A stretch of DNA of 64,000 bases from a virus (Duplodnaviria; Caudoviricetes). Below are positions 12,130-29,066 of this stretch, in pieces. The position numbers and the translations under genes are program-made. The stretch lies in the IMG/VR virus record IMGVR_UViG_3300046779_001541, positions 3,109-67,108 of that record. One strand, 5' to 3'. Every line of letters starts with the position of its first letter. The stretch's first letter is position 1. The notes beneath the pieces are model-generated. The model was given only the letters and a program-made list of their open reading frames with translations. It was not told the origin of the DNA and ran no database searches.

Positions 12130-12867
12130 TTAGTACCCTCCCTGAGAACTTCCAGATTCTAGGGGGTGATTGCCAGAGGCTAGCTGCTCTTTCCAGTCTT
12201 CCTGCATCTCTTTCTGCTGCTCTCGGACCTTCTCGATTTCCTGCTCCCACTCCTTCATTCGCTCCTCGGAGTAGGTTGACTCGGCGTAGTCCCAGAAGGC
12301 CCCGATGGTGTGTCTGGTAGCCCCCTTAACTACGGTAACCTCGTGCACATTATTGATACCACCAGGAAAAGTAACTAATTGGCGAGCCTTTGGCTTTAAT
12401 TTGATCGTGTGGTCGCGGAAGTTCAACTCCCCACCCTCATAGTCATCGTTGATGTATAGAAGGCAGACTAGTTTACTCTTCTCCCATGCTGAAGGATTCC
12501 CGTCCATGTCGGTGTTATCTGAGTGAAATGGAGCAAACGCCCCTACTTGCCACTTCTGAGCGTGGGATGAGACAGACTTAACTGGACGCTGGTGAGCATC
12601 TTCCACTGCCTTGTGCATGCGCTCTGCCAACTTACCTAAATAGTCAGTAGGGAGTCCGTACTTCTCCAGCAATGGGTCTTCTGGCATAATGCTCATGCCG
12701 TATGACTCAAAGAATGCTGACATGCTCCATGGCTGCTCTGGGTCCTCGAAGAATGCAATAATTTTTGCGCCATCTTCCTCGGAGATAAAGTTGTCGTAGA
12801 AGATGATGTCGTCTTTTAGGTAACCCTTATCACCAAACTCAGTTGGTGTCGTCTCAGTGTTGGTCAT
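12130..12867 (-). CDS. Fe(II)/2OG oxygenase, prolyl 4-hydroxylase-like
   Basis: FHSD...LYINDDYEGGEL...NVHEV...RHTI (HxD...H...R). Confidence 0.9.
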   Translation of the reverse strand: MTNTETTPTEFGDKGYLKDDIIFYDNFISEEDGAKIIAFFEDPEQPWSMSAFFESYGMSIMPEDPLLEKYGLPTDYLGKLAERMHKAVEDAHQRPVKSVSSHAQKWQVGAFAPFHSDNTDMDGNPSAWEKSKLVCLLYINDDYEGGELNFRDHTIKLKPKARQLVTFPGGINNVHEVTVVKGATRHTIGAFWDYAESTYSEERMKEWEQEIEKVREQQKEMQEDWKEQLASGNHPLESGSSQGGY

Positions 12868-13330
12868 TAGTCTCTCCTGTATATCCTAGGTTTGTTAGGA
12901 AACGGTCTACTTGAAATCTTTGGTTATCCTTTGAGAATAGCTTAGCAAAGTCATAGACCAATTTGTTATAAGAATCGCTATCCATCTTGCTGCTGGCCTC
13001 GCTGAGAATTATAGCAGCTTCATGGTACTGCTCTCTATGAAACACGCACTCGCCTCCCCTAGGTCTGCGAAGCACTTTGCTGTGAACCCTACCAGTTGGT
13101 TCGTACAGCTCGACAGTCAAGAAATCCTTAGCGAATCCCCAGTCAGTGTAGGCTGCATATCCAGTAGCGGCGTCTATTGCATCGCCATAGAAGTAGATTG
13201 ATCTCGCTGGTTGCTCGCCATCTCGTGCGACAGTCAACATGTAAGAGTCTGCTGTCTTATCGGCTACTCTAGATTTGTATTGAGCCACCATATCTACATG
13301 TTCATTTTTCAATTCACTCATATTATTCAC
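12854..13330 (-). CDS. Hypothetical protein within the oxygenase block
   Basis: 158-aa ORF overlapping both neighbours; no recognisable motif. Confidence 0.55.
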   Translation of the reverse strand: MNNMSELKNEHVDMVAQYKSRVADKTADSYMLTVARDGEQPARSIYFYGDAIDAATGYAAYTDWGFAKDFLTVELYEPTGRVHSKVLRRPRGGECVFHREQYHEAAIILSEASSKMDSDSYNKLVYDFAKLFSKDNQRFQVDRFLTNLGYTGETNDQH

Positions 13331-14204
13331 CGCCTGGGTTCGTATACATGCTGTTATCGTAGACTTTTGGTCTAATGCCTATTCCAGTGAACTTACGCTG
13401 ACCTGCACTAAATCCCCCCATAACCGCGTGGTACATTCTAAATAAATCTACTACAAGCAAGTCACCTTGCTGCCAGTGTTGTGAGTACCTAATTGATGTA
13501 TTTTCATTTAAATTATCTTTAAGCATAGCTAGTAGTTCATCTAATCTAGCTATCTGCTCTTCAGTGGCTGGTGCTCCAGCATACGTGTGCAGCTTTGGCA
13601 TAGCGTAGCTCCCTTGGTCAGTCTCTACTCTAAGTAGAGGTAGACCAGACACTGGATGCGCGTCTACTACTTTTGTGTAAAATGGGCCCTTACCGTGTGG
13701 AGCTGGTTTATCCCAAACGACTATCGAATTAGCTAGAAATTCTCTGTCGTTTTCGCTATACAGACCATACAGCTCTATAGAGTCTACGAATCTAGTATCC
13801 CCCGAGCCATTTGGTCCAGTGAATGTTGTCATATTCCATATACCAGCAAGGATTGGGTGCACATAATACACTTGCTCGATATGCCAGTCGAGCACGTATT
13901 CGTCATTTGTCTGCGTGTACTCTTTATCTGGGTTATCTGAGTGCCCGCCTTGGTATATCGATGTGTCAATAGTGGACTGAGGGGCATCAGAGGCAAAATT
14001 CCAAGAATATATGTCACCTAGGTTTTGTGTGAATAGTATCTGATCCTCTAAAGAAAGCTCGGCTCCTCTAAGTACTAAAACACCGTCTGAGTTAAATGCG
14101 CTGACTACGCTAGGCAGTTTAGATATGGCATCTTCTATTGAAGTTATCTCTATGACTGTTAAAGATTTTTCTACATTGTTAGATTTCACTGTGATTGTAG
14201 TCAT
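13323..14204 (-). CDS. TauD/TfdA-family Fe(II)/2OG dioxygenase
   Basis: GVLVLRG, DWHIEQ (HxE), GDTRFVD, HPVSG, WQQGDLLVVD...YHA...R. Confidence 0.85.
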   Translation of the reverse strand: MTTITVKSNNVEKSLTVIEITSIEDAISKLPSVVSAFNSDGVLVLRGAELSLEDQILFTQNLGDIYSWNFASDAPQSTIDTSIYQGGHSDNPDKEYTQTNDEYVLDWHIEQVYYVHPILAGIWNMTTFTGPNGSGDTRFVDSIELYGLYSENDREFLANSIVVWDKPAPHGKGPFYTKVVDAHPVSGLPLLRVETDQGSYAMPKLHTYAGAPATEEQIARLDELLAMLKDNLNENTSIRYSQHWQQGDLLVVDLFRMYHAVMGGFSAGQRKFTGIGIRPKVYDNSMYTNPGGE

Positions 14205-15051
14205 CTTTCAACTCTCCAGACTCTAGTAGGCTGTAGTACTCTTCTATCGTCATGCGCATTCTCATGTATGGTTCCATAATTTTTAAATCATGGCGGCGCT
14301 TCCTCTGACGTTCCATCTCTTCAAATTTGTCACCATATTTTTCGTTTAATGCATGCCATACAGGAGTGCCTTCGAACTCATACATCCAGTAAAGTCTAGT
14401 TATATACTTTGGAGCTCCATATATTCTTTTAACGCCGTGATAGTACGGGTGCCCAGACGGAAATACTACTAAATCTCCAGCTTTAGGTTTATATTCAAAC
14501 TCCTTGGCTATCTTTCCGTCGGCGATAACGCGAAATGCGATCTCTCCACCTTCATAATCATCATTAGGGTAGAGAACTCCAGTTATGCCAAATTTATCTC
14601 CAGGACCATCAGCGTCTTCTGGCATATAGTCACTGTGATAGTTCATGGTCAAGTTCTCATCGCCATTTAGATTCTCGTCTGGGATATATCTAGCTAGGCC
14701 CCAGGGTTGGCAGGACCAGTTAGGCAGTGGCTTACCTGTATATTCTACGTAAAACTTAGTAGCTAGGTGGAATGCCTTAGCTACTTCTAAGAAATATTTA
14801 TCAGATCCAACTTCTCGTTCCGCTGACTTTGCCACTTCTAGCCACTCATCCCAGGTCGGTAGGTGCGGGTGGCTCCTAAATGAGTGTACTCGGCTATCTA
14901 TTTGTCGGCCGAATCCATACCAGCCGCGCCACTCTCCAAACTCTTCGTAGTAGTCTATGTAGTCATCTGGGTCAGATAGTACATTATGGAAGACAATCAC
15001 GTTGTCGTCTAAAATCTCTACATTAGGGTCATCTACTGTATAGTCTTTCAT
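14179..15051 (-). CDS. Fe(II)/2OG oxygenase, P4H-like
   Basis: YHSD...YPNDDYEGGEI...PKAGDLVVFPS..YYHGV...KY. Confidence 0.9.
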   Translation of the reverse strand: MKDYTVDDPNVEILDDNVIVFHNVLSDPDDYIDYYEEFGEWRGWYGFGRQIDSRVHSFRSHPHLPTWDEWLEVAKSAEREVGSDKYFLEVAKAFHLATKFYVEYTGKPLPNWSCQPWGLARYIPDENLNGDENLTMNYHSDYMPEDADGPGDKFGITGVLYPNDDYEGGEIAFRVIADGKIAKEFEYKPKAGDLVVFPSGHPYYHGVKRIYGAPKYITRLYWMYEFEGTPVWHALNEKYGDKFEEMERQRKRRHDLKIMEPYMRMRMTIEEYYSLLESGELKDDYNHSEI

Positions 15052-15060
15052 TGTTATCCC

Positions 15061-15708
15061 TTAAATTGTTAGATCTAGTAGGTTTTTTATTGGCATATGC
15101 ACGTGGGTAATTATTGTTTTTCTGCCGCTAATTAGTGGCCTTGACTCATGCAAGTATCCCGACGGGAAAACTACTACGCTACCTGCTTTATTCTTTATCG
15201 AGATATCTAAGCCAGGTTGAACTATACCCAATTCCCCGCCTTCGTAGTTATCGTCCAGGTAGACGGCTATGGTTATAGTGTCCCTATCTGGTACAACCAT
15301 ATCGGTGTGTGGTCCCATGTCTTTGTTTTCATCGTACCTACGAATTCCATAGGTGTGGGATCCAAATATTTCTCTATGAAGATGTTCTATTTCCGAATCA
15401 TCCGCGCCCTGTGCTTTTAGATATAGTGCTGTGCATGCTTCCATTGCTCCCAGGATGGAGGTCAATACGTATTCGGACTTGTCTCTAACTAAAGGGTCCG
15501 CTTCCAACTCTAAATCTGGATAACTTAAGGTTTTAAGGTCTCCGTAGGGGTTCTCTTTAGAGTTATTATTTGCGTACCAGACTTCCCATGGGGTCACGGA
15601 TAGACTATTAACTTCCTCTAGGGTAGCCATTACATTGTCTATTTCCGAGATCGCGCCTGGGAAGTAGTAGACATTTCTATGTAGTACTTCGTGAACTAAC
15701 TCAGACAT
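15061..15708 (-). CDS. Fe(II)/2OG oxygenase, P4H-like
   Basis: PHTD...YLDDNYEGGEL...VVFPSGYLHES...GRK. Confidence 0.9.
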   Translation of the reverse strand: MSELVHEVLHRNVYYFPGAISEIDNVMATLEEVNSLSVTPWEVWYANNNSKENPYGDLKTLSYPDLELEADPLVRDKSEYVLTSILGAMEACTALYLKAQGADDSEIEHLHREIFGSHTYGIRRYDENKDMGPHTDMVVPDRDTITIAVYLDDNYEGGELGIVQPGLDISIKNKAGSVVVFPSGYLHESRPLISGRKTIITHVHMPIKNLLDLTI

Positions 15709-15711
15709 ATG

Positions 15712-16497
15712 TTAGTCCTCGTCTAGATACTTTGTAGGCCCAGCGTTAACGTCTTTGTATGCTGAACCAGCATTGAACTTCTCTCGTGACTCTGGGTCAT
15801 TAGGGTCAAACTCTGGCTGAAAAATAAATCCAGGGAACATATACTTATCCCCGCTCTTCATTACGTGAACCTGGTGCTTATACGGGTGTGTAGATGGGAA
15901 GATTAGCGCCTGGCCCGCCTTTGGCTTAATGGTGAAGTCAACTAATTCAGCGTTTGATGGGTCATTTACATCGTCAGCTGGACGTAAGTGCCCATTCTTA
16001 GGATTGCGAAGATCATATGGTCTAATGATAAACGACAATTCTCCGCCGTCATAGTCATCATTGAGATACACAACAATAGACCACTTGATACTTAGATCTC
16101 CAGCTTGAGCGTCAAAGTGCGCGCCCATGGCACAGCCAGGGCGGTACTTCATTACACCAGCAAAGGGGGAGACATTTGGCTCTCCCTCTTCACCGTGATC
16201 TTCATAGAATGCAGCCGAGATCTTCTCCACTGCGCCCCTAATTTGGCCAACTACCCAGCGTACATCATCTGCTCTGTCTGAGACTAGATCATCGAGTGCA
16301 TCTAGATTAAAGTCTTTCTTACTGCCAAAACTGTGACCGTCCTGAGTATTAGAGAACCAGAAACCCCATTCTGGGATTACTGATTGAACTGACTCGTCTT
16401 CATCTAATTCCTCGATTAAGCGGACTAACCTCTGAGGGTCATCTAGAACCTCGCTATATAGGTACACATTCTCGTGAAGCTTTTTCTCTAAATACAT
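15712..16497 (-). CDS. Fe(II)/2OG oxygenase, P4H-like
   Basis: AHFD...YLNDDYDGGEL...PKAGQALIFPSTHPYKHQV...GDKY. Confidence 0.9.
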   Translation of the reverse strand: MYLEKKLHENVYLYSEVLDDPQRLVRLIEELDEDESVQSVIPEWGFWFSNTQDGHSFGSKKDFNLDALDDLVSDRADDVRWVVGQIRGAVEKISAAFYEDHGEEGEPNVSPFAGVMKYRPGCAMGAHFDAQAGDLSIKWSIVVYLNDDYDGGELSFIIRPYDLRNPKNGHLRPADDVNDPSNAELVDFTIKPKAGQALIFPSTHPYKHQVHVMKSGDKYMFPGFIFQPEFDPNDPESREKFNAGSAYKDVNAGPTKYLDED

Positions 16498-16503
16498 AAT
16501 TTC

Positions 16504-17283
16504 CTACTCGAACTGCCATAAAGGGGTAGAGTCTTGGATGGCGTTGGCATTTACCATCCATCTTTTTACATCAGGACCTATCGGTGTAACCCAGTGCTCG
16601 TACGGGAACGCGCAAGGGAAAATAACAACATCTCCAGCTAAGGGCTTGTGCGAGGCTTCGGTAGAGCCTGACTCTACATATTTGCCGTCTTCACCTTTAG
16701 CGTAGCGCCTAACGGTTATCTCTCCGCCATCTCCGTAATCATCATTCAAATATAGATTGTATGCAAATGTCTGATTGGCAATATCGTGATCTTCTTTTGC
16801 GTCTTGATAGCCCCAGTCGCCATTTGGGTGTAGGTGTAGGTGCCCCGAGTAGTCTGAGTGTGGTCCTACTCCCTGCGGTCCTTGGTAATACCTAAACTCT
16901 AGAGGAGCATGTTGGATAATGTTTATATCTAACTGCCAGCGTGCTTTGTAGTCATCTACAACTTCTTCGAACATCTGAAGAAGTTTAATCATAGGCTCGT
17001 AGGCCGTGTCGTCAATTTTAGGGTTAGGATATCTAGCTTTGAAATCTTTAAAAATAGGTCCGCCCAGGATCGACTGATCTAGATCTCTAGGGTTTCTGTA
17101 GTATTCCAGAAGGGGCCTGCGACGTAGCCCGTCCTGGTCTTCCCATTCTTCAGCTGGAGCTAGAAGATATCCGTCACCGTGCGGAGCGGTGTAAAATGAA
17201 TCTATAAGTGCCGAGCAATCTTCTCTAGGGAATACGCCTTCATAGACAGTTACATACTTTAGGATGTCTTTAGCTGAGTTCAC
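16504..17283 (-). CDS. Fe(II)/2OG oxygenase, P4H-like
   Basis: PHSD...YLNDDYGDGGEI...VIFPCAFPYEHWV...KRW. Confidence 0.88.
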   Translation of the reverse strand: MNSAKDILKYVTVYEGVFPREDCSALIDSFYTAPHGDGYLLAPAEEWEDQDGLRRRPLLEYYRNPRDLDQSILGGPIFKDFKARYPNPKIDDTAYEPMIKLLQMFEEVVDDYKARWQLDINIIQHAPLEFRYYQGPQGVGPHSDYSGHLHLHPNGDWGYQDAKEDHDIANQTFAYNLYLNDDYGDGGEITVRRYAKGEDGKYVESGSTEASHKPLAGDVVIFPCAFPYEHWVTPIGPDVKRWMVNANAIQDSTPLWQFE

Positions 17284-17962
17284 TGGAATCCCCTGATTTG
17301 TGGCTTTTTATGGTCCAAAAGAATGGACACACGTATCTAATTCCAGATCTAATCTCTGTAACCCCGTGAATGTAGTGCATGTCGCCTGGGAAGAAGTATG
17401 CTGCTCCAGCTTTTGGCTTAAACTGAATTCCCTGATTAGGGAAGTAAAGTTCTCCACCCTCGTAATCATCGTTGATATAGAAAAGACCAGCGATGTCGTA
17501 GTACGGGAAGTCATTCGGCTTTCCGCGACCTTCACCTTCGTGCAGCTCTTTGTCAGCATGCGGCTGTTGACGCTGCCCAGGTAGCCATCGGACAATAGCT
17601 GGGCTGGTAGCGTGAGCGTCTACATTAAAAAATGCGTCTACTTTTTCCTTTAAACGAAGCTGCATCCCTACGATAATCTCTGAAATCCTAGGGTCTACGC
17701 TGTCCAATGTTGGAGTTGTAGCCACTCGGTGGTCCCAGTAGCCAGAATCGTAGATGACAGTACCGTCTTCGTTATAGTGGGTCTCTGTCTTATCCCAGGT
17801 CTCGTTTGTCTTAGCGAACTCCGTCAAAATACGGAGCTCTTCCTCGGTCATAAAATCTTCAAGTGCGACAATATTGTCAGCGGAGTCGCCGAAAAACCCT
17901 GATGGAGTTATGGACTCGTAAGGGCGTTCACTACTATTTGTGACGTTTTCTGTCATTGCCAT
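17270..17962 (-). CDS. Fe(II)/2OG oxygenase, P4H-like
   Basis: PHAD...YINDDYEGGELYF...PKAGAAYFFPG...YIHGV...RY; TAGGAT lies 6 nt before the ATG. Confidence 0.9.
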   Translation of the reverse strand: MAMTENVTNSSERPYESITPSGFFGDSADNIVALEDFMTEEELRILTEFAKTNETWDKTETHYNEDGTVIYDSGYWDHRVATTPTLDSVDPRISEIIVGMQLRLKEKVDAFFNVDAHATSPAIVRWLPGQRQQPHADKELHEGEGRGKPNDFPYYDIAGLFYINDDYEGGELYFPNQGIQFKPKAGAAYFFPGDMHYIHGVTEIRSGIRYVCPFFWTIKSHKSGDSSELS

Positions 17963-17976: not shown

Positions 17977-18726
17977 CTACTCGTACTTACGTCTTTCCCA
18001 GACTTCGCGCTGATACACGCCGCCATCTGGCATGCGATACTTAGCACTATTTTCCTGGTTTTTCTGCATCATTTCCATTGGATTGAAACTAGTTACAACC
18101 TCTGATTCCCAATTTTCGCGTTTAAATGGGAGAATCTGAGCGTAAGGAGTCCCAGCTGGAATAACTCCAGTGAACCCTTTAGCAATAAAAAACGGCATAG
18201 TCCCTGGCAAGTGGACTTTATCGTTGTCGATAATCCCGCTTGTAGTTAAAAAGGGCAGCTCAAATCGGTTAAACGGCTGAGTATAGAGCGCGCTATATCC
18301 AGCTGGAAGCTCTACAGCCCAGTCTGACCACCATGCAAAGTGCTTCTGGTGATACCCCAGAGGGTGCTCAAACTGAGGCATTGGCATTCTGTCTTGAATA
18401 AAGTCTTTGTTCTTTTCATCCAAAACTTTTGCGTGAATATTTCCAGTGGAGTCTTCATAGAACTCTATGTCACACGGGGTCTTATACATATACCCGCTAC
18501 CCATAATGTCATATACAGCGGGGCAAGCCTTCCAAGTCGGGACTTTACCGCCTCCGTTTGGCATCTCCCAGGCTTTGCCAGTCATAGGGTTCATGGCAAA
18601 TCTATCGGCATTCCTATACCAATCTGGAATGGTTTTCAAAGCTGGCCCTGGCTTGGATGGGCTTTCGTCATTCAACCATGGGCGATTTACAACAAATTTA
18701 GCTTTCTGAGTGTCCAGTTGACTCAC
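17977..18726 (-). CDS. Conserved phage hypothetical protein, DUF6065-like
   Basis: TWKACPAVYDIMGSGY...P.GYS.L...P.NR...PF....G.ID.D...GTP.AQ.LPFKRE. Confidence 0.55.
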   Translation of the reverse strand: MSQLDTQKAKFVVNRPWLNDESPSKPGPALKTIPDWYRNADRFAMNPMTGKAWEMPNGGGKVPTWKACPAVYDIMGSGYMYKTPCDIEFYEDSTGNIHAKVLDEKNKDFIQDRMPMPQFEHPLGYHQKHFAWWSDWAVELPAGYSALYTQPFNRFELPFLTTSGIIDNDKVHLPGTMPFFIAKGFTGVIPAGTPYAQILPFKRENWESEVVTSFNPMEMMQKNQENSAKYRMPDGGVYQREVWERRKYE

Positions 18727-19468
18727 CGTCTTCCTCTACCTCGTAGCTTTGACCAGTGAACGGGCAAGTCACGGTTTTCAGTTTAATTGATTTAGTTTCG
18801 TGCTCTCCCACTGAATCTCCTCTGTAGTCAACGGCATCACGGTACATCTTTGACCAGTCACCAACCCCGTTTTTTATTTCTTGAATGTCACCATACTTAC
18901 GGACTTCTTGCCAATACTCTTGCTCTGGTAGCCCCTCTATAATTTCCATCTCGTATGATTCTTGTAGATCAGTCAGAGATATAGGTAGAACTGCAGCAAT
19001 AGGAGTCCCAGCTGGAATATGTATCTCTACATTTGGCTCGGTTAGTCGCCAAGCTAGAGGTAGCATATGTATATAAAAAGAAGTGCTAATCAGCGTAGTG
19101 TAGCACTGGGCCCCTCGCACAAACAGGTTCGGAACTGGCATTGCCATCATTGATGTCTTTTCATCAGAAATGAATCTAAGACCAGTGGTGAAGCTGATAG
19201 TGGCGTTTCCTCTGCCAGTATTGAGGAATTGATGACCTTCTAGTATTGTCACGTGATCTGGCGTAGTGTCTGTCACGCCGTCCCAAACAAATCTGAGGTC
19301 TTCTGGAAAGGAGATCCCCCAGCCTAGGCGATTAGTCAAATTTAGGGGGAAGCACATGTAGGCGTGCTTATCCGCTGTCTCATCCATCCAATCTCTACGC
19401 GCAGTTAGTTGGTCTAGATTTGCAACCTTACCTTCTGGAAAAAGTTTTTGTACCTGTATTTTAGGCAT
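18698..19468 (-). CDS. DUF6065-family protein
   Basis: RRDWMD...HAYMCFPL..TN.LGW...G.ATI.F...P.N...GTPIAA..P. Confidence 0.65.
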   Translation of the reverse strand: MPKIQVQKLFPEGKVANLDQLTARRDWMDETADKHAYMCFPLNLTNRLGWGISFPEDLRFVWDGVTDTTPDHVTILEGHQFLNTGRGNATISFTTGLRFISDEKTSMMAMPVPNLFVRGAQCYTTLISTSFYIHMLPLAWRLTEPNVEIHIPAGTPIAAVLPISLTDLQESYEMEIIEGLPEQEYWQEVRKYGDIQEIKNGVGDWSKMYRDAVDYRGDSVGEHETKSIKLKTVTCPFTGQSYEVEEDGESTGHSES

Positions 19469-20250
19469 TAGTTTTCAGATTCCTCGTAGATGTCTGGTCT
19501 GTGATACTTCTCTGAATAGTCCAGCATAGTCACCATCGAGTACTTAACTCCAGACTTTACTGGCATAGCGCGGTGAGGATACATGAAGTTGGACGGAAAT
19601 ACGTAAACGTCTCCAGCTTTAGCCTTCACCTGAGCGTTCTGTAGTCTAAAGAAAAGCTCTCCGCCTTCATAATCATCATTCGGGAATCCAACAAGAGACA
19701 CTACGCAGTTATACGAGTAGCCGTGGTCGTGGTGCTCCTGAAAGTGTTGACCTTCCCCGTATCGCACGTAGTTAGTTGCTTCCCAGTAGCGAAGTTCACC
19801 GATGTTATAACGACGAGTATAATCCTTAACTACCTGAAGTTCTCGGTATGTCACATCATCTGCTAGCTTCTTGAGAATTTCCCCCGCCTCTGAGTTATCT
19901 TGTTCGATGTCTGTTTTCTTATATTTAAAATCTACGCAGTCTCTATACTCAGGCATCTTCATCTGATATCCAACCATAGCTTCGCGCCAGTCGTAATCAT
20001 TAGATGGGTCGTCTATTACAGACTCTAGGCGCTTAATTATGTCCAGATTAGTTGGCAGAACGTCTCGGTAGACCCAGATGCCACTTCCTGGCACAACTTC
20101 TTGACATGATGACCATGTCTGCTCTTCGATGGTGTACCACTTAACTAAACGATTGTGGATATTCTGCTGCTCTTGCTTACCTTTTTGGTCAATAGCGGCG
20201 TCTGCTTTTTGCTTTTCTTGTAGCTCTTCAGCTGTCAATTCCTGGGCCAT
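19468..20250 (-). CDS. Fe(II)/2OG oxygenase, P4H-like
   Basis: EHHD...FPNDDYEGGELFF...FPSNFMYPHRAMPVKSGVKY. Confidence 0.9.
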   Translation of the reverse strand: MAQELTAEELQEKQKADAAIDQKGKQEQQNIHNRLVKWYTIEEQTWSSCQEVVPGSGIWVYRDVLPTNLDIIKRLESVIDDPSNDYDWREAMVGYQMKMPEYRDCVDFKYKKTDIEQDNSEAGEILKKLADDVTYRELQVVKDYTRRYNIGELRYWEATNYVRYGEGQHFQEHHDHGYSYNCVVSLVGFPNDDYEGGELFFRLQNAQVKAKAGDVYVFPSNFMYPHRAMPVKSGVKYSMVTMLDYSEKYHRPDIYEESEN

Positions 20251-20258
20251 TTTTATCC

Positions 20259-20990
20259 TTAGTACTTTAGTTTGTAATCTTCAACAACTTGGGAGACTCT
20301 TTGGTTGACACCATCTCTGTCGTGGTAGTCAGTCATAACTACAACTGCATATTTAGTGCCACTAATCATTTCTTTAGATGCGTGTTCATAGATGAATGTA
20401 GACGGGAATACAGCAATATCGCCCTTCTTTGGTTTCAACTCTACACCGAATCTAGGGAACCACAATTCCCCGCCCTCATAATCGTCATTTAGATATATGA
20501 CAGCCGAGATGGTGGCCACATAAGTCGGGCCGTGATCAGCGTGAATCCTAAACTGCGTGCCAGCGCCTTCGTACTTGACAAAGTTGAATGCTTCATAGGC
20601 TCGAATACCTACTCCCCAATAGGCTCCATAATCATCAACGCACATCCGTAGCCGCTGGAAAATTTCTTCGTGAATACTGTACAGCTCAGAATTCTCTACG
20701 GTCTTTGGCCCTAAGTTGTTGCTGGAGACTTTAAAATCCTGGGCATTTCTTGCGTATGAATCTACATCAGATGAGTTAGTGACTTTTGCGCCTTGCCATT
20801 GAAACTGCATATCGCCATTTAAATTTCGCTCTAATGTCTCGATATATCTGTCGCAGTCGGCAGCTGGGATGGCATTGCGATATACGTTAATCCCTAGGGC
20901 TGGATTTAAAACTGACATTGGCCCTAGCTGTCGATCTGCCATGCGAGTACTCGCGGTCTCTGATCTATCTTTTGTGAACCAGTTATTCAT
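20259..20990 (-). CDS. Fe(II)/2OG oxygenase, P4H-like
   Basis: IHAD...YLNDDYEGGELWF...FPSTFIYEHAS...GTKY. Confidence 0.9.
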   Translation of the reverse strand: MNNWFTKDRSETASTRMADRQLGPMSVLNPALGINVYRNAIPAADCDRYIETLERNLNGDMQFQWQGAKVTNSSDVDSYARNAQDFKVSSNNLGPKTVENSELYSIHEEIFQRLRMCVDDYGAYWGVGIRAYEAFNFVKYEGAGTQFRIHADHGPTYVATISAVIYLNDDYEGGELWFPRFGVELKPKKGDIAVFPSTFIYEHASKEMISGTKYAVVVMTDYHDRDGVNQRVSQVVEDYKLKY

Positions 20991-21015
20991 AGTAGCTTTA
21001 TCCTACTACACATTT

Positions 21016-21058
21016 AAAAAGAAAAGCGGCTAGATTTCTCTAGCCGCTACTTCTTTTT
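21016..21058 (-). terminator. Intrinsic terminator after the PPFF gene (possibly bidirectional)
   Basis: 10-bp stem AGCGGCTAGA/TCTAGCCGCT, a GAAA loop on the minus strand, and T-rich runs on both sides. Confidence 0.8.
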
Positions 21059-21063
21059 GAGTC

Positions 21064-21987
21064 CTACTTATCTTCGTCCTCTTTAAGCTCTTCCCATGCT
21101 TCCCATGGGATTGAGTATGAGAAGTACGGTGGGAAGAACGGTGGGAAGAACGGTGGGAAGAACGGTGGGAAGAAAGGAGGGAAGAATGGGAAGAACGGTG
21201 GGAAGAACGGTGGGAAGAACGGTGGGAAGAAAGGAGGGAAGAATGGGAAGAATGGAGGGAAGAAAGGAGGGAAGAATGGGAAGAATGGAGGGAAGAAAGG
21301 AGGGAAGAATGGGAAGAACGGTGGGAAGAACGGTGGGAAGAATGGAGGGAAGAAAGGAGGGAGAGTCGTTACTGGTGCGCTGGGTGTTCCAGCTGAAGTC
21401 CCGTTCTCGTTGACTAGATAGACTGTATAGCTTTGGCTAGTGTCTCCTACTTCAGATACACCCATTGGGTTATTGGCCAAGTTGATCTGCCCTGGTTGAG
21501 TGATCTGGTCTGTAGATATAGCGTACCTGCCAGTAATAGCCTTACCGCCAGTTTCGCCTTCTGCCCAAGATATAGTGTCAACATTAGCTGTTGTAGATGT
21601 GACCACTACGCTCAATGGGGCTTGAGGCACTGTTGTAGCTGTAACAATAGACGAAAGCGCTGAGTCTGAGTCACCTGAAGCATTTGATAATACAACAGAC
21701 GCTTTATACTCTTGATTCGAATTCAATCCAGTAACAGTTACACTGTACACGCCTCCGCTAGGAGTTGGAAGTGCTCCAGTAGATAAACTAGATAGCCCGA
21801 TTGAGTCAGTTATGGTGTAAGAAGTGGCCTCGGGTGATAGTTCATTTATCGTCCATGTGACAACTATTGCACCATCATTGTATGGGCGATTTGTACCAAC
21901 ATCTGTAGCCGTAACGTTTTCTGGTGCTAACGGTTCTAAGAAGTCATTTTGCTGGGACGAACGTCCACCAGCCTCTTTCTTTGCCAT
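21064..21987 (-). CDS. FN3-domain protein with a C-terminal (PPFF/PFF)n repeat and acidic tail
   Basis: Two FN3-like modules, then 16 PPFF + 4 PFF + 1 PPYF units (80 aa), then SYSIPWEAWEELKEDEDK. Confidence 0.85.
   Translation of the reverse strand: MAKKEAGGRSSQQNDFLEPLAPENVTATDVGTNRPYNDGAIVVTWTINELSPEATSYTITDSIGLSSLSTGALPTPSGGVYSVTVTGLNSNQEYKASVVLSNASGDSDSALSSIVTATTVPQAPLSVVVTSTTANVDTISWAEGETGGKAITGRYAISTDQITQPGQINLANNPMGVSEVGDTSQSYTVYLVNENGTSAGTPSAPVTTLPPFFPPFFPPFFPPFFPFFPPFFPPFFPFFPPFFPPFFPFFPPFFPPFFPPFFPPFFPFFPPFFPPFFPPFFPPFFPPYFSYSIPWEAWEELKEDEDK
21121..21362. repeat. 12/9-bp degenerate tandem repeat encoding PPFF/PFF
   Basis: Plus-strand units such as ggtgggaagaac, ggagggaagaaa and gggaagaat; the strand is almost all purine. 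Confidence 0.9.
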
Positions 21988-22006
21988 GAGTTACTCTCTC
22001 TTAACT

Positions 22007-24526
22007 TTATGCTGTCAAATCACCGTACATGTACCATAGGTCAGCGCTACGCTTAATTATAGTACAAGATGACCACTGGGTTCTGAGCTTGTTGCCAGGG
22101 GTGTAACGTAGGGTTACGCCTGAATCTGGAGCAATTGTCACCTGACCTGATCCAGTCTGAACAATATCCATAGACGCGCCTACTGGCCAAGCCAAAGAAG
22201 CGTTCGTTGGAATTGTGAAAGTAGTCGCGGAGGAGCTGTTCATCTCTATTACGTTATCCTTGTGAGCAAGGGTGTCTAGCGTGTAGTTTGCAGTCTTTTC
22301 GGTGAATGAAGTAAGAGATGCAACACCAGCAGAAGTCTGAGTTGTCCCATCGACAAATGTAACTGAGGCCGCGGTCATGTTAGTTGCAGTTAAATCTGCA
22401 ACGGCCACGTCTGCTAATGCAAAAGTGTTGTCTGAAGTGTCTATAAATACTGAACTGTCTGGTTCAGGGACGTAACCGTCAAAGAACTTGAACACACCAT
22501 CAGTCGCGTCACGGAACATACCAGCGTGAGCATAGGTGCCATTAGCATAACGACCAGCTGCCCAACCGAGGTCTGGGTTAGTGTGAACCTTACCGCGAGC
22601 AGTTCCACCGCTAACGTAAGTGTCTGTTACAGTGCTAGCTACAGTAAAGGTGTTTTCAGTAACTGCAAGAATCTCTAAACCAGTTGAGTTTACGTCGAAC
22701 GAGCTAGGAGTTACACCTGAAACAGTAACATAATCTCCAGCATCATAGCCATGGGCTTCTGTAGTTGTGTAGATTACGTTAGTCCCATCACCAACTGCGC
22801 CAGACAGGGTCGAGAGTCCAGCGTTATTCAAGTAGATCATGTTGTCTTTGACCTTCAGGTCAGACGCAGATACTGTGGTTGTAGTTCCTTGAACAATTAA
22901 GTTACCAGTGACAACTAGATCAGCTGTCTCTACCTCGCCAGTAAAGACTGGGCTAGATAGGTCAGCTTTTAGGTCTAGTGCTGTCTGTACAGCATTGGAT
23001 ACTGGCTTATCTAGATCAGTGGTGTTGTCGACATCCCCTAAACCAACCATTGCAGCTGTAATACCAGAAACTGTTCCAGTGAAAGTCGGGTTAGCGATAG
23101 GTGCCTTGCCGTCTAACTGGTTTTGTACGTTAGATGTCACAGTGCTTATGTAGCCAAGTTCAGTGGCAGATACGTCACCAATAGTAGTATCTGATGGTAA
23201 TGCAACTGTCCCCGTGAAAGTAGGGCTGGCAATAGGTGCATATGTAGTTGAAGCAACAGAGCTTGCAAGCTTACCGTCAATTTGAGCTTGAATATCAGAT
23301 GTGACGTTAGCTAGTGTGGCCAAGTCTGCAGCAGATACATCTCCAATAGAGGTTGTTGCAGGTAGAACTACAGTTCCCGAGAATGTTGGGTCAGAGAGAG
23401 GTGCGTACCCCATCTCTAGATCTGTCACATAAACTAAATTAGCTGTGTTAGAGATGCCGTGGACATCTAAAGTTGTATCAGCATGTGCAGTTAGATCGCT
23501 CTGGGTGACTAGCTCTGCTGTATCTGCAATACCGTGCACATTCTGAGTGTTCTCATTGTGGGATTCGATAGCTGTAGATACTTGTGATGTTAGCTGAGTT
23601 GTAGTCACTAGCTCTGCTGTATTAGCTATACCGTGAACGCTAAGAGTGTCTGCCGCGTGATCTGAAAGATCTGTCTGATAGACGAGGTTGGCTGTGTTGG
23701 AGATACCGTGAACGCTAAGGGTGTCTCCTGTGTGATCCGAGAGATCACTCTGGTAAACAAGATTAGCCGTGTTCGAGATCCCGTGAACATCGGTATCTTC
23801 GGCAGCGTGTTCAGTGACTAACTGATAGGTGTAGTCTCTACCGATAAAAGCAAGATCATTGTAGTTAGTTATTCCGTCACCAATTTTTGCAAATGTCCTG
23901 TTAGTGTCGCTCTCCACGTAGATGGTGTTTGCGGTAGTTACGGCATTTGCTTGTGAGAGATTCGTAGATGTGTCAATTATAAAACTTAGCTTGCCCGCTA
24001 AAGCTGTTGTAATAGTGGTTGCATAGTTAGGGTCATCACCAAGTGCGGCAGCTAATTCATTTAAAGTGTCAAGCGTACCAGGAGCTGAGGCAACTAAATC
24101 TGCAATAGCGTTGTCGACATATGCAACTGCGTTTGCCTGAGCGTTATTAGCCTTTGTCTGAGCACCTGACGTTGTTTCTAATACAGAGGTGTCAGCAATG
24201 CCGTGAACATTTGTGGTCAGGTCAGAGTGCGTGTCAAGTGCTGTAGAAATGGTGTTAACAAAATCTGGATCATCACCAATAGAGGCCGCTAGTTCAACTA
24301 GAGTATCTAGGTCAGAAGGGGCTAGCCCGACTACACCCTCTACAGCAGCTTCGATATCGGCCTGAGTGACGCCAGCGTACGATAATGTAGTCCAGTCCGT
24401 AGTGCCGTCACCAAGCTTAAACTTAGTGGTGTCGGTCTCGTAACCTAGCTCACCAGCGGCTAGCGTTGGATTAGCTGAGGTCCATTCAGCGGCGGTACCG
24501 CGTCTAAATTGAATTCTGACTGCCAT
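22007..24526 (-). CDS. Tail/virion fibre with Mtd-N-like N-terminus and His-containing repeats
   Basis: RRGTAAEWTSANPTLAAGELGYETDT.KFK.GDG, six H-x6-VHGI-x-(N/D)T repeats, LDTL.ELAA motifs, and a C-terminal domain ending WYMYGDL. Confidence 0.8.
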   Translation of the reverse strand: MAVRIQFRRGTAAEWTSANPTLAAGELGYETDTTKFKLGDGTTDWTTLSYAGVTQADIEAAVEGVVGLAPSDLDTLVELAASIGDDPDFVNTISTALDTHSDLTTNVHGIADTSVLETTSGAQTKANNAQANAVAYVDNAIADLVASAPGTLDTLNELAAALGDDPNYATTITTALAGKLSFIIDTSTNLSQANAVTTANTIYVESDTNRTFAKIGDGITNYNDLAFIGRDYTYQLVTEHAAEDTDVHGISNTANLVYQSDLSDHTGDTLSVHGISNTANLVYQTDLSDHAADTLSVHGIANTAELVTTTQLTSQVSTAIESHNENTQNVHGIADTAELVTQSDLTAHADTTLDVHGISNTANLVYVTDLEMGYAPLSDPTFSGTVVLPATTSIGDVSAADLATLANVTSDIQAQIDGKLASSVASTTYAPIASPTFTGTVALPSDTTIGDVSATELGYISTVTSNVQNQLDGKAPIANPTFTGTVSGITAAMVGLGDVDNTTDLDKPVSNAVQTALDLKADLSSPVFTGEVETADLVVTGNLIVQGTTTTVSASDLKVKDNMIYLNNAGLSTLSGAVGDGTNVIYTTTEAHGYDAGDYVTVSGVTPSSFDVNSTGLEILAVTENTFTVASTVTDTYVSGGTARGKVHTNPDLGWAAGRYANGTYAHAGMFRDATDGVFKFFDGYVPEPDSSVFIDTSDNTFALADVAVADLTATNMTAASVTFVDGTTQTSAGVASLTSFTEKTANYTLDTLAHKDNVIEMNSSSATTFTIPTNASLAWPVGASMDIVQTGSGQVTIAPDSGVTLRYTPGNKLRTQWSSCTIIKRSADLWYMYGDLTA

Positions 24527-24546
24527 TTGTCCTAGTCCTTATTACC

Positions 24547-24777
24547 TTAGAAAGAAGACGGTCCGCCACCGTCGTAGTTGATGTTGTAAGAGCTTGAGGC
24601 GTTTCCGCCATCCACGTTTGTGACGTCGCTAGCTGTCATAGATATCCAGCTAGTTCCGTCATAGGTATACATGGAACCTAAGTCAGACCTGAAAAAGAGG
24701 TCACCTTGATCAGCGTCAGCTGGAAATGAAGGGCCTTGCACAATGTTAATTGGCGTTAGGAACTTCTTGCTTGCCAT
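24547..24777 (-). CDS. Small fibre-associated protein
   Basis: P....GDLFFRSDLGSMYTYDGTSW fibre motif. Confidence 0.6.
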   Translation of the reverse strand: MASKKFLTPINIVQGPSFPADADQGDLFFRSDLGSMYTYDGTSWISMTASDVTNVDGGNASSSYNINYDGGGPSSF

Positions 24778-24815
24778 CTAAGTGACCTCTTTCTTCAGTC
24801 TTATTTATTTTACTA

Positions 24816-27185
24816 TTAGCCAGTTACCACTACACGGTAGCTGTCTGCAGATACAGTTGCTGCTGCATTCCAGCTAACGGTTACAGTGTTGGCATTGGTG
24901 ATTACGATGTCTGCTTCTACAACAGCGTTAGATGAAGCATCACGCATTTGTACAGTCACATCTGATGTGTCTAATGAGTGAGACACTGTCCAAGTAACAA
25001 TTCCAGCTGAAGGGGTTAGGCTTCCATTGTTCTCAGCGTACTTGGTGGTAGCCCCTAGGTTGGCGCGTGCACCTGCAGCAGTAGTTGCTCCAGTACCGCC
25101 GTTCTCAATGGCTACGGTTCCAGTTACGTTTGCAGCGTTACCAGAGATGTCTCCATCAATATCTGAACCAGGGATTGTCTCAGTTGCAACTAGTGCATCT
25201 GTGCCAGAACCATAAACATAACCAGTTAAAGTTGTTGCACCAGTACCACCGTGAGCAACATCAATCGTGCTGCCTTCCCATGTACCTTCAGTGATAGTTC
25301 CAACAGTGTCAATGGTGTTCTGACCAGCGTAGGTGCTAGAGATGCTTACGCCGCTACCGTCTACGGTGATTCCAGAGCCTGCAGTTACAGATAGCTCTGC
25401 ACCAGTCTTTGTGATACCGTTGCCAGCAACAATCTGGCCAGTTCCAGAGAACTGAGTCCAAGTGATTCCAGTGGTTCCAACCGTAATTGCACCGTCGGTC
25501 GAAATCACCCAGCCAGAGTCAGCGTTTAGAGTACCTTCTTCAACAAAAGTGAATGAACCAGCGGTTAGTTCACCATTTTCAGCATCATCTGCGCGAACCC
25601 AGGCGTCAGCCTTAACTACATAGATGCCGTTCTCTGAAGCAGTAGATTGGCTCTTAACTAAGACTCGGTCATCTGCTGACAAAGCGACACCATCGATTGT
25701 CTGAGTCCCAGACAAGGTGATGTTTGCAGTGGTAGCTGCGCGAACCGAGTTCTTGATGTCAAGACCCTGAGAAGCAGCTGCAATCTCTGAGCGCAGGGTT
25801 GTTAGAACAGTGTTGTCAGCGTCCTGGAAGTCCTGAGTAAGGCTGCTCTCGAGTGCAGAGTCTGCAGATTGGTAAGCAGTGGTCAGGTTGGTGCTTAGTG
25901 TGGTATCCGCGGTTTCGTATGCGGTTGTTAGTTCAGTAGATAGATCAGTGATTTCGCTATCTACGTAAGAAGTTACGTTAGAGATTTCGCCATCTACGTA
26001 AGTACGTGTAGCCATAACTGAAGTGTTTGCAGTGAACACGCCAGTCGATGAACTGTACTCTAAAGTCGAGTCACCAATGCTTACTGCACCACGAGCGCGA
26101 GCCTGGGTGAAGTATAGGTTGGTACCTTCTGTGACATCATCAGTTGTGTAGGCAAGATCAATGGCTCCGATTGCGTTGTCTACATAGCTAACTGCGTTGT
26201 CATAGGCATTCCCAGCAGCTGTGTCTGCATAAGAAGTTGCGTTATTGTAAGCAGTGTCAGCCGCACCTGCTGCGTCGTAATTAACTGCAAGACCGTCTGC
26301 ATAAGAAACTGCGTTGGTATATGCAGTTGCAGCGGATCCAGCAGGGTCATAGTTAGCTGCCAGGCCGTCCACGTAGGTTACAGCATTGTCGTATGCAGCA
26401 TCTGCAACAGTATCAGCATAGCCTTCAGCTGCTGTCTGTGCTGTAGCAGCAGCACCGAAAGCATCGTAAGTGTCAGCAGTAACCGAAATCGTGTCAGTTA
26501 GGCCGTCAATTGTGATGCCAGTACCAGCGGTTAGAGTGTCTTGCTTACCAGCAGCAATGTCGGTAAGGTCACTGATAACGTTCGGGTTGTCCTGAAGGGC
26601 AGCGGCCAACTCGTTAAGGGTGTCTAGAGTAGCTGGAGCAGAATCTACAAGAGCAGCTACTGCGTTGTCTGTGTAGCTCTCAGCTGCAGCAATAGCCTCG
26701 GACTTAGCATTTGCAATGTCAGAGGTTAGTCCAGTTGCTACGGTGTTAGTGTAAGTTGCAGCGTTAGCCTGGGCTGAGTCAGCAGAACCAACTGCATCAT
26801 AGTTTACAGCTAGTCCATCTGCATAAGAAACAGCATTGGTATATGCAGTGTCAGCTGCACCTGCTGCGTCGTAGTTAGATGCTAGCCCGTCTGCGTATGT
26901 GACAGCGTTGCTGTATGCAGTGTCAGCTGCACCAAGCGCATCATATGTGCCATCTAGGTCTAACGCAGTAATAGCGGCGTTAATCGCCTCTGTAACGTTC
27001 CCGCCAGCCGCTAGGGATACCCAGCCGTTAGTGACGCCTGTATAGACATTTAGTTGACCATCGGTAGTGTTGAAGTAGAACTGACCAACAGCAGGCGATG
27101 AGGGAGCAGTAGCGAGGTTTTGGATTCTCGCATTCTGAAGCTCATTCTTGTTGAGGTTCAGGTTCGTTAAGAACTGTTTTGCCAT
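24816..27185 (-). CDS. Tail/virion fibre protein
   Basis: YDAAGAADTAY..AV.YAD repeats, an SVRAATTANITLSGTQTIDGV...DRVLVK.Q....NGIYV domain, and GGTGATT repeats. Confidence 0.8.
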   Translation of the reverse strand: MAKQFLTNLNLNKNELQNARIQNLATAPSSPAVGQFYFNTTDGQLNVYTGVTNGWVSLAAGGNVTEAINAAITALDLDGTYDALGAADTAYSNAVTYADGLASNYDAAGAADTAYTNAVSYADGLAVNYDAVGSADSAQANAATYTNTVATGLTSDIANAKSEAIAAAESYTDNAVAALVDSAPATLDTLNELAAALQDNPNVISDLTDIAAGKQDTLTAGTGITIDGLTDTISVTADTYDAFGAAATAQTAAEGYADTVADAAYDNAVTYVDGLAANYDPAGSAATAYTNAVSYADGLAVNYDAAGAADTAYNNATSYADTAAGNAYDNAVSYVDNAIGAIDLAYTTDDVTEGTNLYFTQARARGAVSIGDSTLEYSSSTGVFTANTSVMATRTYVDGEISNVTSYVDSEITDLSTELTTAYETADTTLSTNLTTAYQSADSALESSLTQDFQDADNTVLTTLRSEIAAASQGLDIKNSVRAATTANITLSGTQTIDGVALSADDRVLVKSQSTASENGIYVVKADAWVRADDAENGELTAGSFTFVEEGTLNADSGWVISTDGAITVGTTGITWTQFSGTGQIVAGNGITKTGAELSVTAGSGITVDGSGVSISSTYAGQNTIDTVGTITEGTWEGSTIDVAHGGTGATTLTGYVYGSGTDALVATETIPGSDIDGDISGNAANVTGTVAIENGGTGATTAAGARANLGATTKYAENNGSLTPSAGIVTWTVSHSLDTSDVTVQMRDASSNAVVEADIVITNANTVTVSWNAAATVSADSYRVVVTG

Positions 27186-27196
27186 TTGTTATTTCC

Positions 27197-27571
27197 TTAG
27201 GAGAGGTACGCGGTACCCGAAATGGCTACCGAGAAGGTGATAGTTAGTGTGTTTACGTCTTGGTGCTCGATTGCTCCCTCTACAACGTCCCCCGATGTCA
27301 TAAAGACACTGACTGACGGGTAGAAGCCTAAGTTGTGCTCTATAGTCCACGTAGAGCTGTCATCCCCCTGAGTGTGGGTGTAGGAGATGAGTGGTACTAG
27401 TTCTTCAGTATCTATGCCTGTGTAAGGCAAATCTAACCAAGTAGCTGTACCAGTGCCTATTTTCATCTTGTTAGTGTCAATCTCAACACCAACTTCACCG
27501 CGAGCTAATGTAGGGTTAGCCGAAGTCCAGTTAGCGGCAGTGTCGTTTCTAAGTTGTATCTGTACAGCCAT
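27197..27571 (-). CDS. Short fibre protein: Mtd-N-like domain plus HNLG beta domain
   Basis: QLRNDTAANWTSANPTLARGEVGVE.D...KIG.G; YTHTQ...TWTIEHNLGFYPSV. Confidence 0.7.
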   Translation of the reverse strand: MAVQIQLRNDTAANWTSANPTLARGEVGVEIDTNKMKIGTGTATWLDLPYTGIDTEELVPLISYTHTQGDDSSTWTIEHNLGFYPSVSVFMTSGDVVEGAIEHQDVNTLTITFSVAISGTAYLS

Positions 27572-27581
27572 TAGTTAACCC

Positions 27582-28388
27582 TTAAAAAGTAGATGCGGAC
27601 CCGCCTTCAATTGTACCAGAGAGGGCCCCAGTCGATTGAGGGAGAGATTCAGGGGAAGCGGGTACCCATGTATTAGTAGACTGCTCGTACACTAATACCT
27701 GACCATCTGTTAAAGTCGATAAGTCAATATCAGTTAATTCGCTTAAAGCTACTTCTTGAACCGAGGCTGGGTCTACCCATTCGGTTTCGTAGTTGCCACC
27801 AGAAGACTTTTTCAAGATTTGACCAGCAGTACCTCCCGCTGGTATCCCTACACCTTGCGGCCCCTGTGGTCCAGTCGGGCCTGCTTGTCCTCTATCTCCG
27901 ATAGGTGCAACAAGAACATCTACTTGCTCGTTATAGGTCCAACTAAGTATCGAGCCGCCTATGTACTCGATCTGCAGGTCCCACCAGCCTGAGTTGTCCG
28001 TGCCGCCAGTCACATAAAATCTGGCTGTTTTACGGGGGTCGCTAACCTTTTGCAGGGTTATAACGGCTGTATACCCGTTGTCAGACTGAGTAGCTGCAGT
28101 TAGAAGTGCAGATTGGCTGTCGGTTAGGGTGTCAGTTGCAGAAATGTATAGTGATGTTGCAGACATAAAAGTCGCATTGTTAAACGCAAAATACCCGCCG
28201 CCAGGGTTTGCTGAGCTGTATGAGTTTAAGAATTTAAATCTTGCCGACAGTCCGCCCACATAGCCGCGCTCGCCAGTAGCGCCTGTAGCGCCAATAGGCC
28301 CTTGAGCACCTTGAGGGCCAGACGCCGCTACTGTTACTTGACGTGCGTATTTGCCAGACGTAACTGAACTAACTGTATAACCAGCCAT
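27582..28388 (-). CDS. Fibre protein with short collagen segments
   Basis: [19 protein letters not shown]; PAGGTAGQILKK...YETEW shared with 9673..11688. Confidence 0.75.
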   Translation of the reverse strand: MAGYTVSSVTSGKYARQVTVAASGPQGAQGPIGATGATGERGYVGGLSARFKFLNSYSSANPGGGYFAFNNATFMSATSLYISATDTLTDSQSALLTAATQSDNGYTAVITLQKVSDPRKTARFYVTGGTDNSGWWDLQIEYIGGSILSWTYNEQVDVLVAPIGDRGQAGPTGPQGPQGVGIPAGGTAGQILKKSSGGNYETEWVDPASVQEVALSELTDIDLSTLTDGQVLVYEQSTNTWVPASPESLPQSTGALSGTIEGGSASTF

Positions 28389-28750: not shown

Positions 28751-28835
28751 CTGGACTCGATTCGATGGAGAGAAAATACAGTCGCTCTAATTGTACCGCA
28801 TAGCGGAGGTGCCTAGATACTGCTAAGCTTAGCCA

Positions 28836-29066
28836 GTGATCGCACTAGCCGAACCAAACTTAGATGTAGACACTAGGACTACCCATGATGGGCCTAGGTA
28901 CGCTCATTACGCTGAATCTGTATCGGTAACTGAAGGTTATGTGCTTGGAACGCCAGTAATGGCTATTTGCGGAAAATTATTTGTCCCGTCAAGAGATCCA
29001 AAAAAATTCCCAGTTTGTCCGATTTGCAAAGAAATTGCAGACGCACTATTCTTGGGTGAAGAATAA
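28836..29066 (+). CDS. DUF3039-domain protein (actinobacterial, Cys-containing)
   Basis: HY......G..V.A.CGK.FVPSRDPKKFPVCP.CKEI. Confidence 0.8.
   Translation: MIALAEPNLDVDTRTTHDGPRYAHYAESVSVTEGYVLGTPVMAICGKLFVPSRDPKKFPVCPICKEIADALFLGEE

Follow-up and report, generated by a model that had tools for sequence, protein, structure and literature searches.

The window analysed here is a 64,000-nucleotide stretch of DNA (positions 3,109 to 67,108 of IMG/VR record IMGVR_UViG_3300046779_001541), part of a 67-kb viral contig estimated to be about half complete. Its minus strand encodes P0001, in which two fibronectin type III (FN3) domains are followed by a tract of 80 residues composed of proline, phenylalanine and a single tyrosine. 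The gene lies within a virion-fibre gene block and is followed by an array of 2-oxoglutarate/Fe(II) (2OG-Fe(II)) oxygenase genes. We favour, at a probability of about 0.5, the reading that P0001 is a fibre-module protein whose Pro/aromatic polymer would be matured by the adjacent hydroxylase set. Tandem arrays of such oxygenases have been known in phages since at least 2010 (PMC2938197), with a substrate never established; the repeat protein, found beside the array in almost every locus of a widespread freshwater lineage, is a concrete candidate substrate. If the reading is right, bacteriophage virion proteins undergo post-translational hydroxylation, and nature makes a Pro/Phe polymer whose synthetic tripeptide counterparts have been studied as stiff, piezoelectric materials.

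Linkage of the repeat to the oxygenase array

About 80 loci encoding repeat proteins share one gene order: tail fibre, repeat gene, oxygenases, DUF6065, more oxygenases. The array of the window lies downstream of a terminator-like hairpin and has 12 tightly packed genes, namely eight PF13640 oxygenases, one TauD-type enzyme, DUF6065, its paralog and one unknown gene. To define the core of the array, the downstream proteins of 56 non-redundant loci with at least 6.5 kb of downstream DNA were clustered. Three clusters (19468/20259, DUF6065 and 17270-like) were present in all 56 loci, the 17977-like cluster (the DUF6065 paralog) in 54, the 12130-like in 53, the 15712/15061-like in 50 and the 14179-like in 37. 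Against circularity, the reverse test began from DUF6065 (alignment A2), which yielded at least 597 viral stretches, 52 of them with at least 3.5 kb of upstream DNA. A PPxF-type gene was found upstream in 36 of these and the homologous FN3 gene, with a six-residue repeat, in 14 more, so that 50/52 carry a repeat gene; the other two have inserted genes or too little upstream DNA.

The linkage to the array holds when the N-terminal domain changes, and judged from these sequences the repeat, rather than FN3, is therefore the constant partner of the array and a portable module. In contigs from metagenome-assembled genomes (MAGs) the module occurs as a protein of 87-168 amino acids that lacks FN3 yet still follows a fibre gene; oxygenase and DUF6065 genes lie beside it in three of four such contigs (L171, L183 and L180/L188, the last two handles being one contig), and the fourth (L184) stops at the repeat gene. 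A scan of 596 Gb of prokaryotic genomes for three consecutive PPFF units gave only 22 matches, which makes the motif almost missing from cellular genomes, and most of those in frame are this phage module on MAG contigs. The module contigs (L171, L176, L180/L188, L183 and L184) had been binned to unrelated phyla (Verrucomicrobiales, Gammaproteobacteria, Acidibacter and Cyclobacteriaceae); probably phage DNA placed in the wrong bins, they say nothing reliable about a host.

The array enzymes look active and of the peptidyl-prolyl type. The HxD...H motif and a distal Lys or Arg are intact in four aligned core oxygenase families with 95-133 orthologs each. In the protein of the first downstream gene (20259) the corresponding residues are H150, D152, H203 and K213, kept across 95 orthologs, and in that of the second (19468) H173, D175, H226 and K236, kept across 126. 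The best solved relative of the 20259 protein is the Bacillus anthracis prolyl 4-hydroxylase (P4H; 3itq/5hv0, E 6.5e-5). Its weak structural matches include collagen lysyl and prolyl hydroxylases and PDB 5c5t, entered as 'Prolyl 4-hydroxylase' (E 0.58), which we take to be the enzyme of the chlorella virus PBCV-1.

On the other side of the repeat gene stands a tail-fibre gene, whose stop lies 19 nt ahead of the repeat-gene start. Almost every related locus has a homolog of this fibre gene immediately before the repeat gene, the two lying a median of 23 nt apart. Directly after the repeat gene, the hairpin of the window has a folding energy of -25.5 kcal/mol (z -5.8) and is the strongest terminator-like site in 18500-29500. 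This signal is shared by relatives: over 93 distinct loci the median folding energy of the 70 nt 3' of the repeat gene is -20.8 kcal/mol, 56% being at -15 or lower, and the median 3' of oxygenase genes is -8.2 kcal/mol, with 5% at -15 or lower. Because the gap to the fibre gene is short and the strong terminator is conserved, the repeat gene probably closes the fibre transcription unit, and its product would fit a late structural protein.

Several further repeat-bearing proteins were seen. Some phages encode a second one, a small protein in which the repeat is joined to a PASTA-like N-terminal domain and in some cases also to a Hint domain (L010:8400-9365, L061:2835-3599). The first open reading frame (ORF) of L152, L157 and L158 encodes 640-690 amino acids, with the same repeat type and the same end (…TFGSRFIR[AS]Y) as the FN3 protein of that phage. 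Related phages also have fibre-like proteins in which long (Pro-Thr)n linkers enclose short PPFF stretches (L047:263-2038, L056:2-472, L057:31-987).

The Pro/Phe tract and its family

A sequence-only reading of this DNA had reported the tract as 16 PPFF, 4 PFF and 1 PPYF units, and a re-count matched this exactly: residues 210-289 hold 41 Phe, 38 Pro and 1 Tyr and nothing else, with unit lengths running 444434434434444344444. At the DNA level, Tandem Repeats Finder picks up 21121-21362, with periods of 12, 33 and 57 nt. Three peptide units are encoded by five distinct DNA units, and the Pro codons are mixed (CCA 16, CCT 13, CCG 9), so it is the peptide sequence of the repeat that is being kept. 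Phe is encoded by TTC in all 41 cases, whereas the adjoining fibre gene uses TTT 12 and TTC 9 times. The minus-strand ORF 21064-21987 (307 open codons) is the real frame, since hundreds of homologs hold FN3 and repeat in it; the plus-strand ORF 21096-21413 is a mere antisense by-product of the repeat. Chance origin of the repeat is excluded. With homologs in the same frame and synonymous differences among units, the motif proposed from the letters alone is real and conserved as protein.

That the tract is instead a non-coding microsatellite or an assembly artefact can in practice be dismissed; what speaks for it is the behaviour of short reads. Their contigs do break there: Logan contigs from four freshwater or subsurface runs, independent of one another, matched both flanks at high identity, all broke inside 21155-21325, and none in any of the four runs spans the repeat. 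The exact unit number therefore rests on a single IMG/VR assembly. Reads of many related phages also pile up at this point, summed contig depth over 21088-21392 being several-fold to ~25-fold above that of the flanks in three of the four runs and about level in X10; the peak in run X8 was 736 against about 28 on the flanks. Many related repeat-bearing phages evidently share the same samples. Against an artefact, the frame stays open through the repeat into the tail, hundreds of independent homologs have the same architecture, many with an in-frame Hint domain after the repeat, and the units differ synonymously in DNA while the peptide is uniform. Variation in repeat number, which the sequence-only reading had proposed to look for in homologs, was found: 44 of 100 pairs with N-terminal 200 residues at least 97% identical have repeats of unequal length, the difference reaching 69 residues and keeping the frame in every case.

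The carrier of the tract is well folded. Its first 20 residues match a family consensus in which K4, G7, S10, F16, L17 and P19 are almost invariant (alignment A3 of the family), and this peptide may be a virion-docking site. P0001 has FN3 domains in the sense of seven-stranded beta-sandwiches recognised by profile or fold. The Pfam fn3 score on residues 21-109 is 24.6 bits, marginally below the cutoff of 25; AlphaFold 2 (AF2) models both sandwiches at a predicted local distance difference test (pLDDT) of 95-98; and a Foldseek search with the model ranked first proteins from uncultured Caudovirales phages that are entered as 'Fibronectin type III' (E 6e-21). Among 30 relatives, fn3 was matched in 26 and Ig_J in 7.

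The tract and the first residues after it (210-294) are modelled at pLDDT 53-65 and by DSSP have no regular secondary structure. The sequence-only reading had suggested a rigid, self-assembling stalk, to which AF2 lends no computational support; a three-copy prediction of the full protein (alignment A3) scored 0.00 and was used as evidence neither way. The model and the length variation fit a non-globular, length-tolerant element and are silent on stiffness or assembly. Compared with a protein atlas, residues 200-307 gave no usable feature match, the structure rows being all at TM < 0.35. The tract also falls outside three classes of repeat with which it was compared. It is not collagen-like, for residues 210-289 have no Gly, let alone one at every third position, and there is no Pfam Collagen match. 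The Ser-Pro(3-5) or PPVYK motifs of extensins and other plant hydroxyproline-rich glycoproteins are missing, as the window repeat has no Ser or Lys. It also lacks the Gly and the spacers of FG-nucleoporins; PSFG or PAFG units do occur in some relatives.

Eighty residues without a polar side chain, in a gene of the fibre module and behind FN3 domains of the kind typical of tail tip and fibre proteins (with Ig_J in the relatives noted above), might suggest a membrane- or envelope-active segment that enters or sticks to a hydrophobic layer of the host surface on adsorption, or an anchor in a hydrophobic virion pocket, with hydroxylation secondary or absent. We consider this improbable. A Pro every three or four residues rules out transmembrane segments of helix or beta-strand type, relatives place His, Arg, Ser or Gly at the variable position of the unit, and the conserved enzyme array would be left unexplained.

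P0001 belongs to an unnamed family. As we define it, its proteins start with the conserved N-terminal peptide and continue through a pair of FN3 domains into three or more P(P)xF or xPPxFF units, and their genes stand between a tail-fibre gene and an oxygenase/DUF6065 array. Members have about 200 amino acids of FN3 and then the Pro/aromatic repeat. A word-indexed search, in which 8000 candidates were scored, found at least 619 proteins at E ≤ 1e-3, none with a functional name in any source; an exhaustive HMMER search over cluster representatives found 1105, many of which are giant FN3 proteins matching the FN3 part only. At least 274 IMG/VR viral contigs, from freshwater samples, encode a relative. 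DNA nearly identical to the window was present in freshwater and subsurface metagenomes of 11 studies. In a tree built from the FN3 region, P0001 clusters with L093, L095, L090, L091 and L096. Across 176 family proteins the repeat spans 12-120 residues (median 63) and is built of 1767 PPxF and 1150 PxF units, where x is F in 1704 cases, Y in 658, H in 121, R in 108, S in 97, G in 76 and M in 51. A subgroup has instead a six-residue unit, (A/S/G)PP(G/S/V/A)FF.

The part after the repeat varies: in these 176 proteins it measures 101-200 amino acids in 94, 11-40 in 57 (some Cys-rich) and 10 or fewer in 19. The acidic C-terminal cap described in the sequence-only reading is indeed present in P0001, as an 18-residue tail; it is not a feature of the family, whose other members end in Hint domains, Cys-rich tails or a few residues. 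The large C-terminal domain in about half of the family belongs, by sequence profile, to the Hint superfamily and resembles bacterial intein-like (BIL) domains. A profile of 17 of these domains has the BIL domain 2lwy as best solved relative (E 3.8e-12), and single-sequence Pfam matches are weak (Intein_splicing in 15/30, also PT-HINT, Hint and Hint_2). As in BIL domains, Cys1 stands immediately after the repeat in 17/17 aligned Hint sequences, and many finish in HNK, the His-Asn of intein block G plus one residue (e.g., L033:1311-1814, L010:926-1429, L007:10895-11368). They differ from BIL domains in block B, where the canonical TxxH is kept in a subset only and the His is often Gln in the others (TxxQ-like). 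The window protein, whose chain stops 18 residues past the repeat, has no Hint domain. Another group of relatives has no Cys in the first 30 residues past the repeat (starting, e.g., KSVGVNT or SIASNTG). A literature search found nothing joining bacterial intein-like domains, phage and fibronectin type III.

A Hint domain exactly at the C-terminal end of the repeat in about half of the family, and many tailoring enzymes beside one repeat-bearing gene, speak for a precursor like those of extensins or of ribosomally synthesized and post-translationally modified peptides, its repeat being cut from the FN3 carrier (by Hint in relatives) and then released or cross-linked off the virion. We think this very improbable: the window protein has neither Hint nor an evident N-terminal cleavage site, Hint cleavage would free a C-terminal end and not a peptide, and two well-folded FN3 domains in 307 residues (atypical for a precursor), together with the position in a fibre operon, point to a structural protein.

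Proposed maturation by the array and its alternatives

In the reading that we favour, P0001 would be a late tail-fibre-module protein of an uncultured freshwater phage, and the array enzymes would hydroxylate its polymer after translation, chiefly on proline. By hydroxylation the strongly hydrophobic tract would become an extended stalk rich in hydroxyproline (Hyp), or a sticky tail, on the fibre apparatus, a maturation comparable to that of collagen, plant Pro-rich wall proteins and mussel adhesive proteins. In about half of the family, the window protein excepted, the Hint domain would then cut or transfer the polymer end, a possible self-processing step. What we propose, then, is a substrate relation, a chemistry, a place in the virion and a physical role, which might be adhesion, spacing or bundling. 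That hydroxylation tunes the repeat had been put forward by the sequence-only reading; its genomic side is well backed, because repeat and array co-occur near-universally in both directions (56/56 and 50/52 loci), while the chemistry is what we infer.

Collagen, plant extensins and Pro-rich wall proteins, and mussel foot proteins are Hyp-rich structural proteins matured by P4H. The window repeat resembles them in its short Pro-containing tandem units of variable number, its presumably extended, non-globular form and the presence of putatively dedicated 2OG hydroxylases. It differs in lacking a Gly at each third position, Ser-Pro(n) motifs and Lys/Tyr-rich decapeptides, and its Phe content has no counterpart there.

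Among viruses, PBCV-1 is reported to offer a precedent for a viral P4H acting on Pro-rich repeats of its own virus (Eriksson et al., 1999, as cited in PMC7019647), though PBCV-1 virions are reported to have no detected hydroxyproline (PMC7019647). As there, the phage pairs small P4H-type 2OG oxygenases with a protein of short Pro-rich tandem repeats. PBCV-1 differs in being a eukaryotic virus that has a single enzyme, against an array of five to ten families plus DUF6065 here, and in having polar rather than Pro/Phe repeats, with enzyme and substrate not adjacent. The pairing of a Pro-rich repeat with a P4H-type enzyme is thus known in itself; new here are the Pro/Phe composition, the multi-enzyme array and the optional Hint capping. 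Our literature search found no paper describing a natural PPFF polymer or its pairing with an oxygenase array.

For arrays, the nearest comparison is gp41-gp54 of Synechococcus phage Syn9, a tandem array of ten dioxygenases, among which stands a protein that has a conserved cysteine and the fold of dUTPases (Iyer, Abhiman, de Souza and Aravind, 2010; PMC2938197), for which secondary-metabolite synthesis was proposed and no substrate named (PMC2938197). Both arrays consist of many non-identical classical 2OG/Fe(II) dioxygenases in tandem, directly after fibre genes. DUF6065 fits the dUTPase-fold Cys protein of Syn9: its AF2 model (pLDDT 80) resembles dUTPases (Foldseek E 2e-4, TMt about 0.64), Cys39 is invariant in the family, and Syn9 gp43 is a weak match to the DUF6065 profile (E 3e-5). 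The Syn9 array differs in having tryptophan halogenases and a JmjC enzyme in addition, and its oxygenases are less than 30% identical to those here. In INPHARED phages, megablast and tblastn found no relative of the region, of P0001 or of DUF6065; matches there were limited to oxygenases of less than 30% identity in cyanomyoviruses.

The Syn9 array has no Pro/aromatic repeat protein near it, and this bears on the main rival, under which the polymer is an unmodified hydrophobic spacer or low-complexity linker in an accessory fibre protein, the oxygenases act elsewhere (on tail or collagen-like fibres, on a small molecule or secondary metabolite, or on nucleic acid) and the adjacency comes from a common place at the end of the fibre block. 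In its favour, the Syn9 array too follows fibre genes; for such arrays Iyer et al. (2010) suggested that metabolites are made, or that collagen and tail-collar proteins are the substrates (PMC2938197); the collagen-like fibres at 8234-11688 adjoin the other end of the array; and a terminator separates the repeat gene from the enzymes. We rate this rival as unlikely, though to be taken seriously. It has to contend with a co-occurrence that is near-universal both ways and survives a change of N-terminal domain; related loci do not regularly have a collagen-like gene at 10 kb or less; and PF13640 enzymes are peptide hydroxylases by family.

Several points weigh against maturation by the array as we favour it. 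PPFF is Phe-rich and unlike any proven P4H substrate motif. There are far more distinct oxygenase families than proline hydroxylation alone would need. Arrays can exist without this substrate, as Syn9 indicates. Some of the differences in repeat length may be assembly collapse or artefact. Co-variation of repeat type and enzyme content, finally, is confounded by clade. A 20259-like oxygenase is present in 83/86 PPxF-type loci and 0/11 six-residue-repeat loci, and this was read as an effect of clade, since on the tree three changes suffice to explain the six-residue repeat and the enzyme is missing from mixed or PPFF-type loci as well. Ties between variable enzyme clusters and features of the repeat were rejected as evidence, the associations in Fisher tests being weak and uncorrected.

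The literature on synthetic Pro-Phe-Phe was represented accurately by the sequence-only reading as far as free tripeptides go: they self-assemble, and hydroxylation of their Pro alters packing and mechanics (PMC8113556). They share the residue motif of the window repeat. The difference is that they are free, with charged termini and crystal or fibre packing, whereas P0001 carries an 80-residue covalent polymer, mostly PPFF, on folded domains. Because the polymer has no free termini, a tripeptide crystal would be a weak model for it. A bolder version of our reading, which we hold improbable, is that these phages make a new protein material: a dedicated multi-oxygenase pathway would produce, from genetically encoded (Pro-Pro-Phe-Phe)n, a Hyp/aromatic fibre that self-associates on the tail-fibre apparatus and would be nature's equivalent of synthetic Hyp-Phe-Phe assemblies, and Hint-bearing relatives would transfer its C-terminus covalently to a second molecule.

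Coordinates and neighbouring genes

Table 1. Features of the window discussed in the text (positions in the window)
Feature	Coordinates	Strand	Basis and remarks
FN3-FN3-(PPFF)n protein gene (P0001)	21064..21987	-	307 amino acids, stop codon within coordinates; ORF translation and homologs
Conserved N-terminal peptide, residues 1-20	21928..21987	-	family consensus M..K..G..S..QNDFLEP; short helix 10-16 (AF2)
Two tandem FN3-type beta-sandwich domains, residues about 21-208	21364..21927	-	Pfam, AF2, Foldseek
Pro/Phe polymer, residues 210-289	21121..21360	-	16 PPFF, 4 PFF, 1 PPYF
18-residue C-terminal tail SYSIPWEAWEELKEDEDK	21067..21120	-	acidic, amphipathic; helix 295-306 (AF2); unconserved in family
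Intrinsic-terminator-like hairpin	21015..21048	-	directly after stop; 10-bp stem, GAAA loop, then TTTTCTTTTT T-tract; also given as 21025-21048
First downstream 2OG-Fe(II) oxygenase, prolyl-4-hydroxylase type	20259..20990	-	Pfam 2OG-FeII_Oxy_3 1e-10
Second 2OG-Fe(II) oxygenase, core	19468..20250	-	Pfam 2OG-FeII_Oxy_3 6e-12
DUF6065 protein	18698-19468	-	Pfam DUF6065 1e-24
Distant DUF6065 paralog	17977-18726	-	hhalign probability 69%
Rest of array: six PF13640 oxygenases, TauD-type enzyme (13323-14204), unknown gene (12854-13330)	12130..17962	-	Pfam scan
Two collagen-like fibre genes	8234-11688		in the co-directional block, at opposite end of array from repeat gene
Upstream tail-fibre gene, 839 amino acids, Mtd_N head	22007..24526	-	Pfam Mtd_N 6e-16; PHROG tail-fibre families
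Further fibre-like gene in co-directional block	24816-27185

The window also encodes a tmRNA (tag ANSRSAFALAA) together with four tRNAs, for Thr, Met, Leu and Arg and none for Pro or Phe, at 35455-35786 and 49566-50223. The tail-fibre gene upstream of P0001 holds a 75-nt tandem repeat of its own, of 2.1 copies, at 23628-23788, which encodes '...VHGISNTANLVYQ.DLSDH...' motifs.

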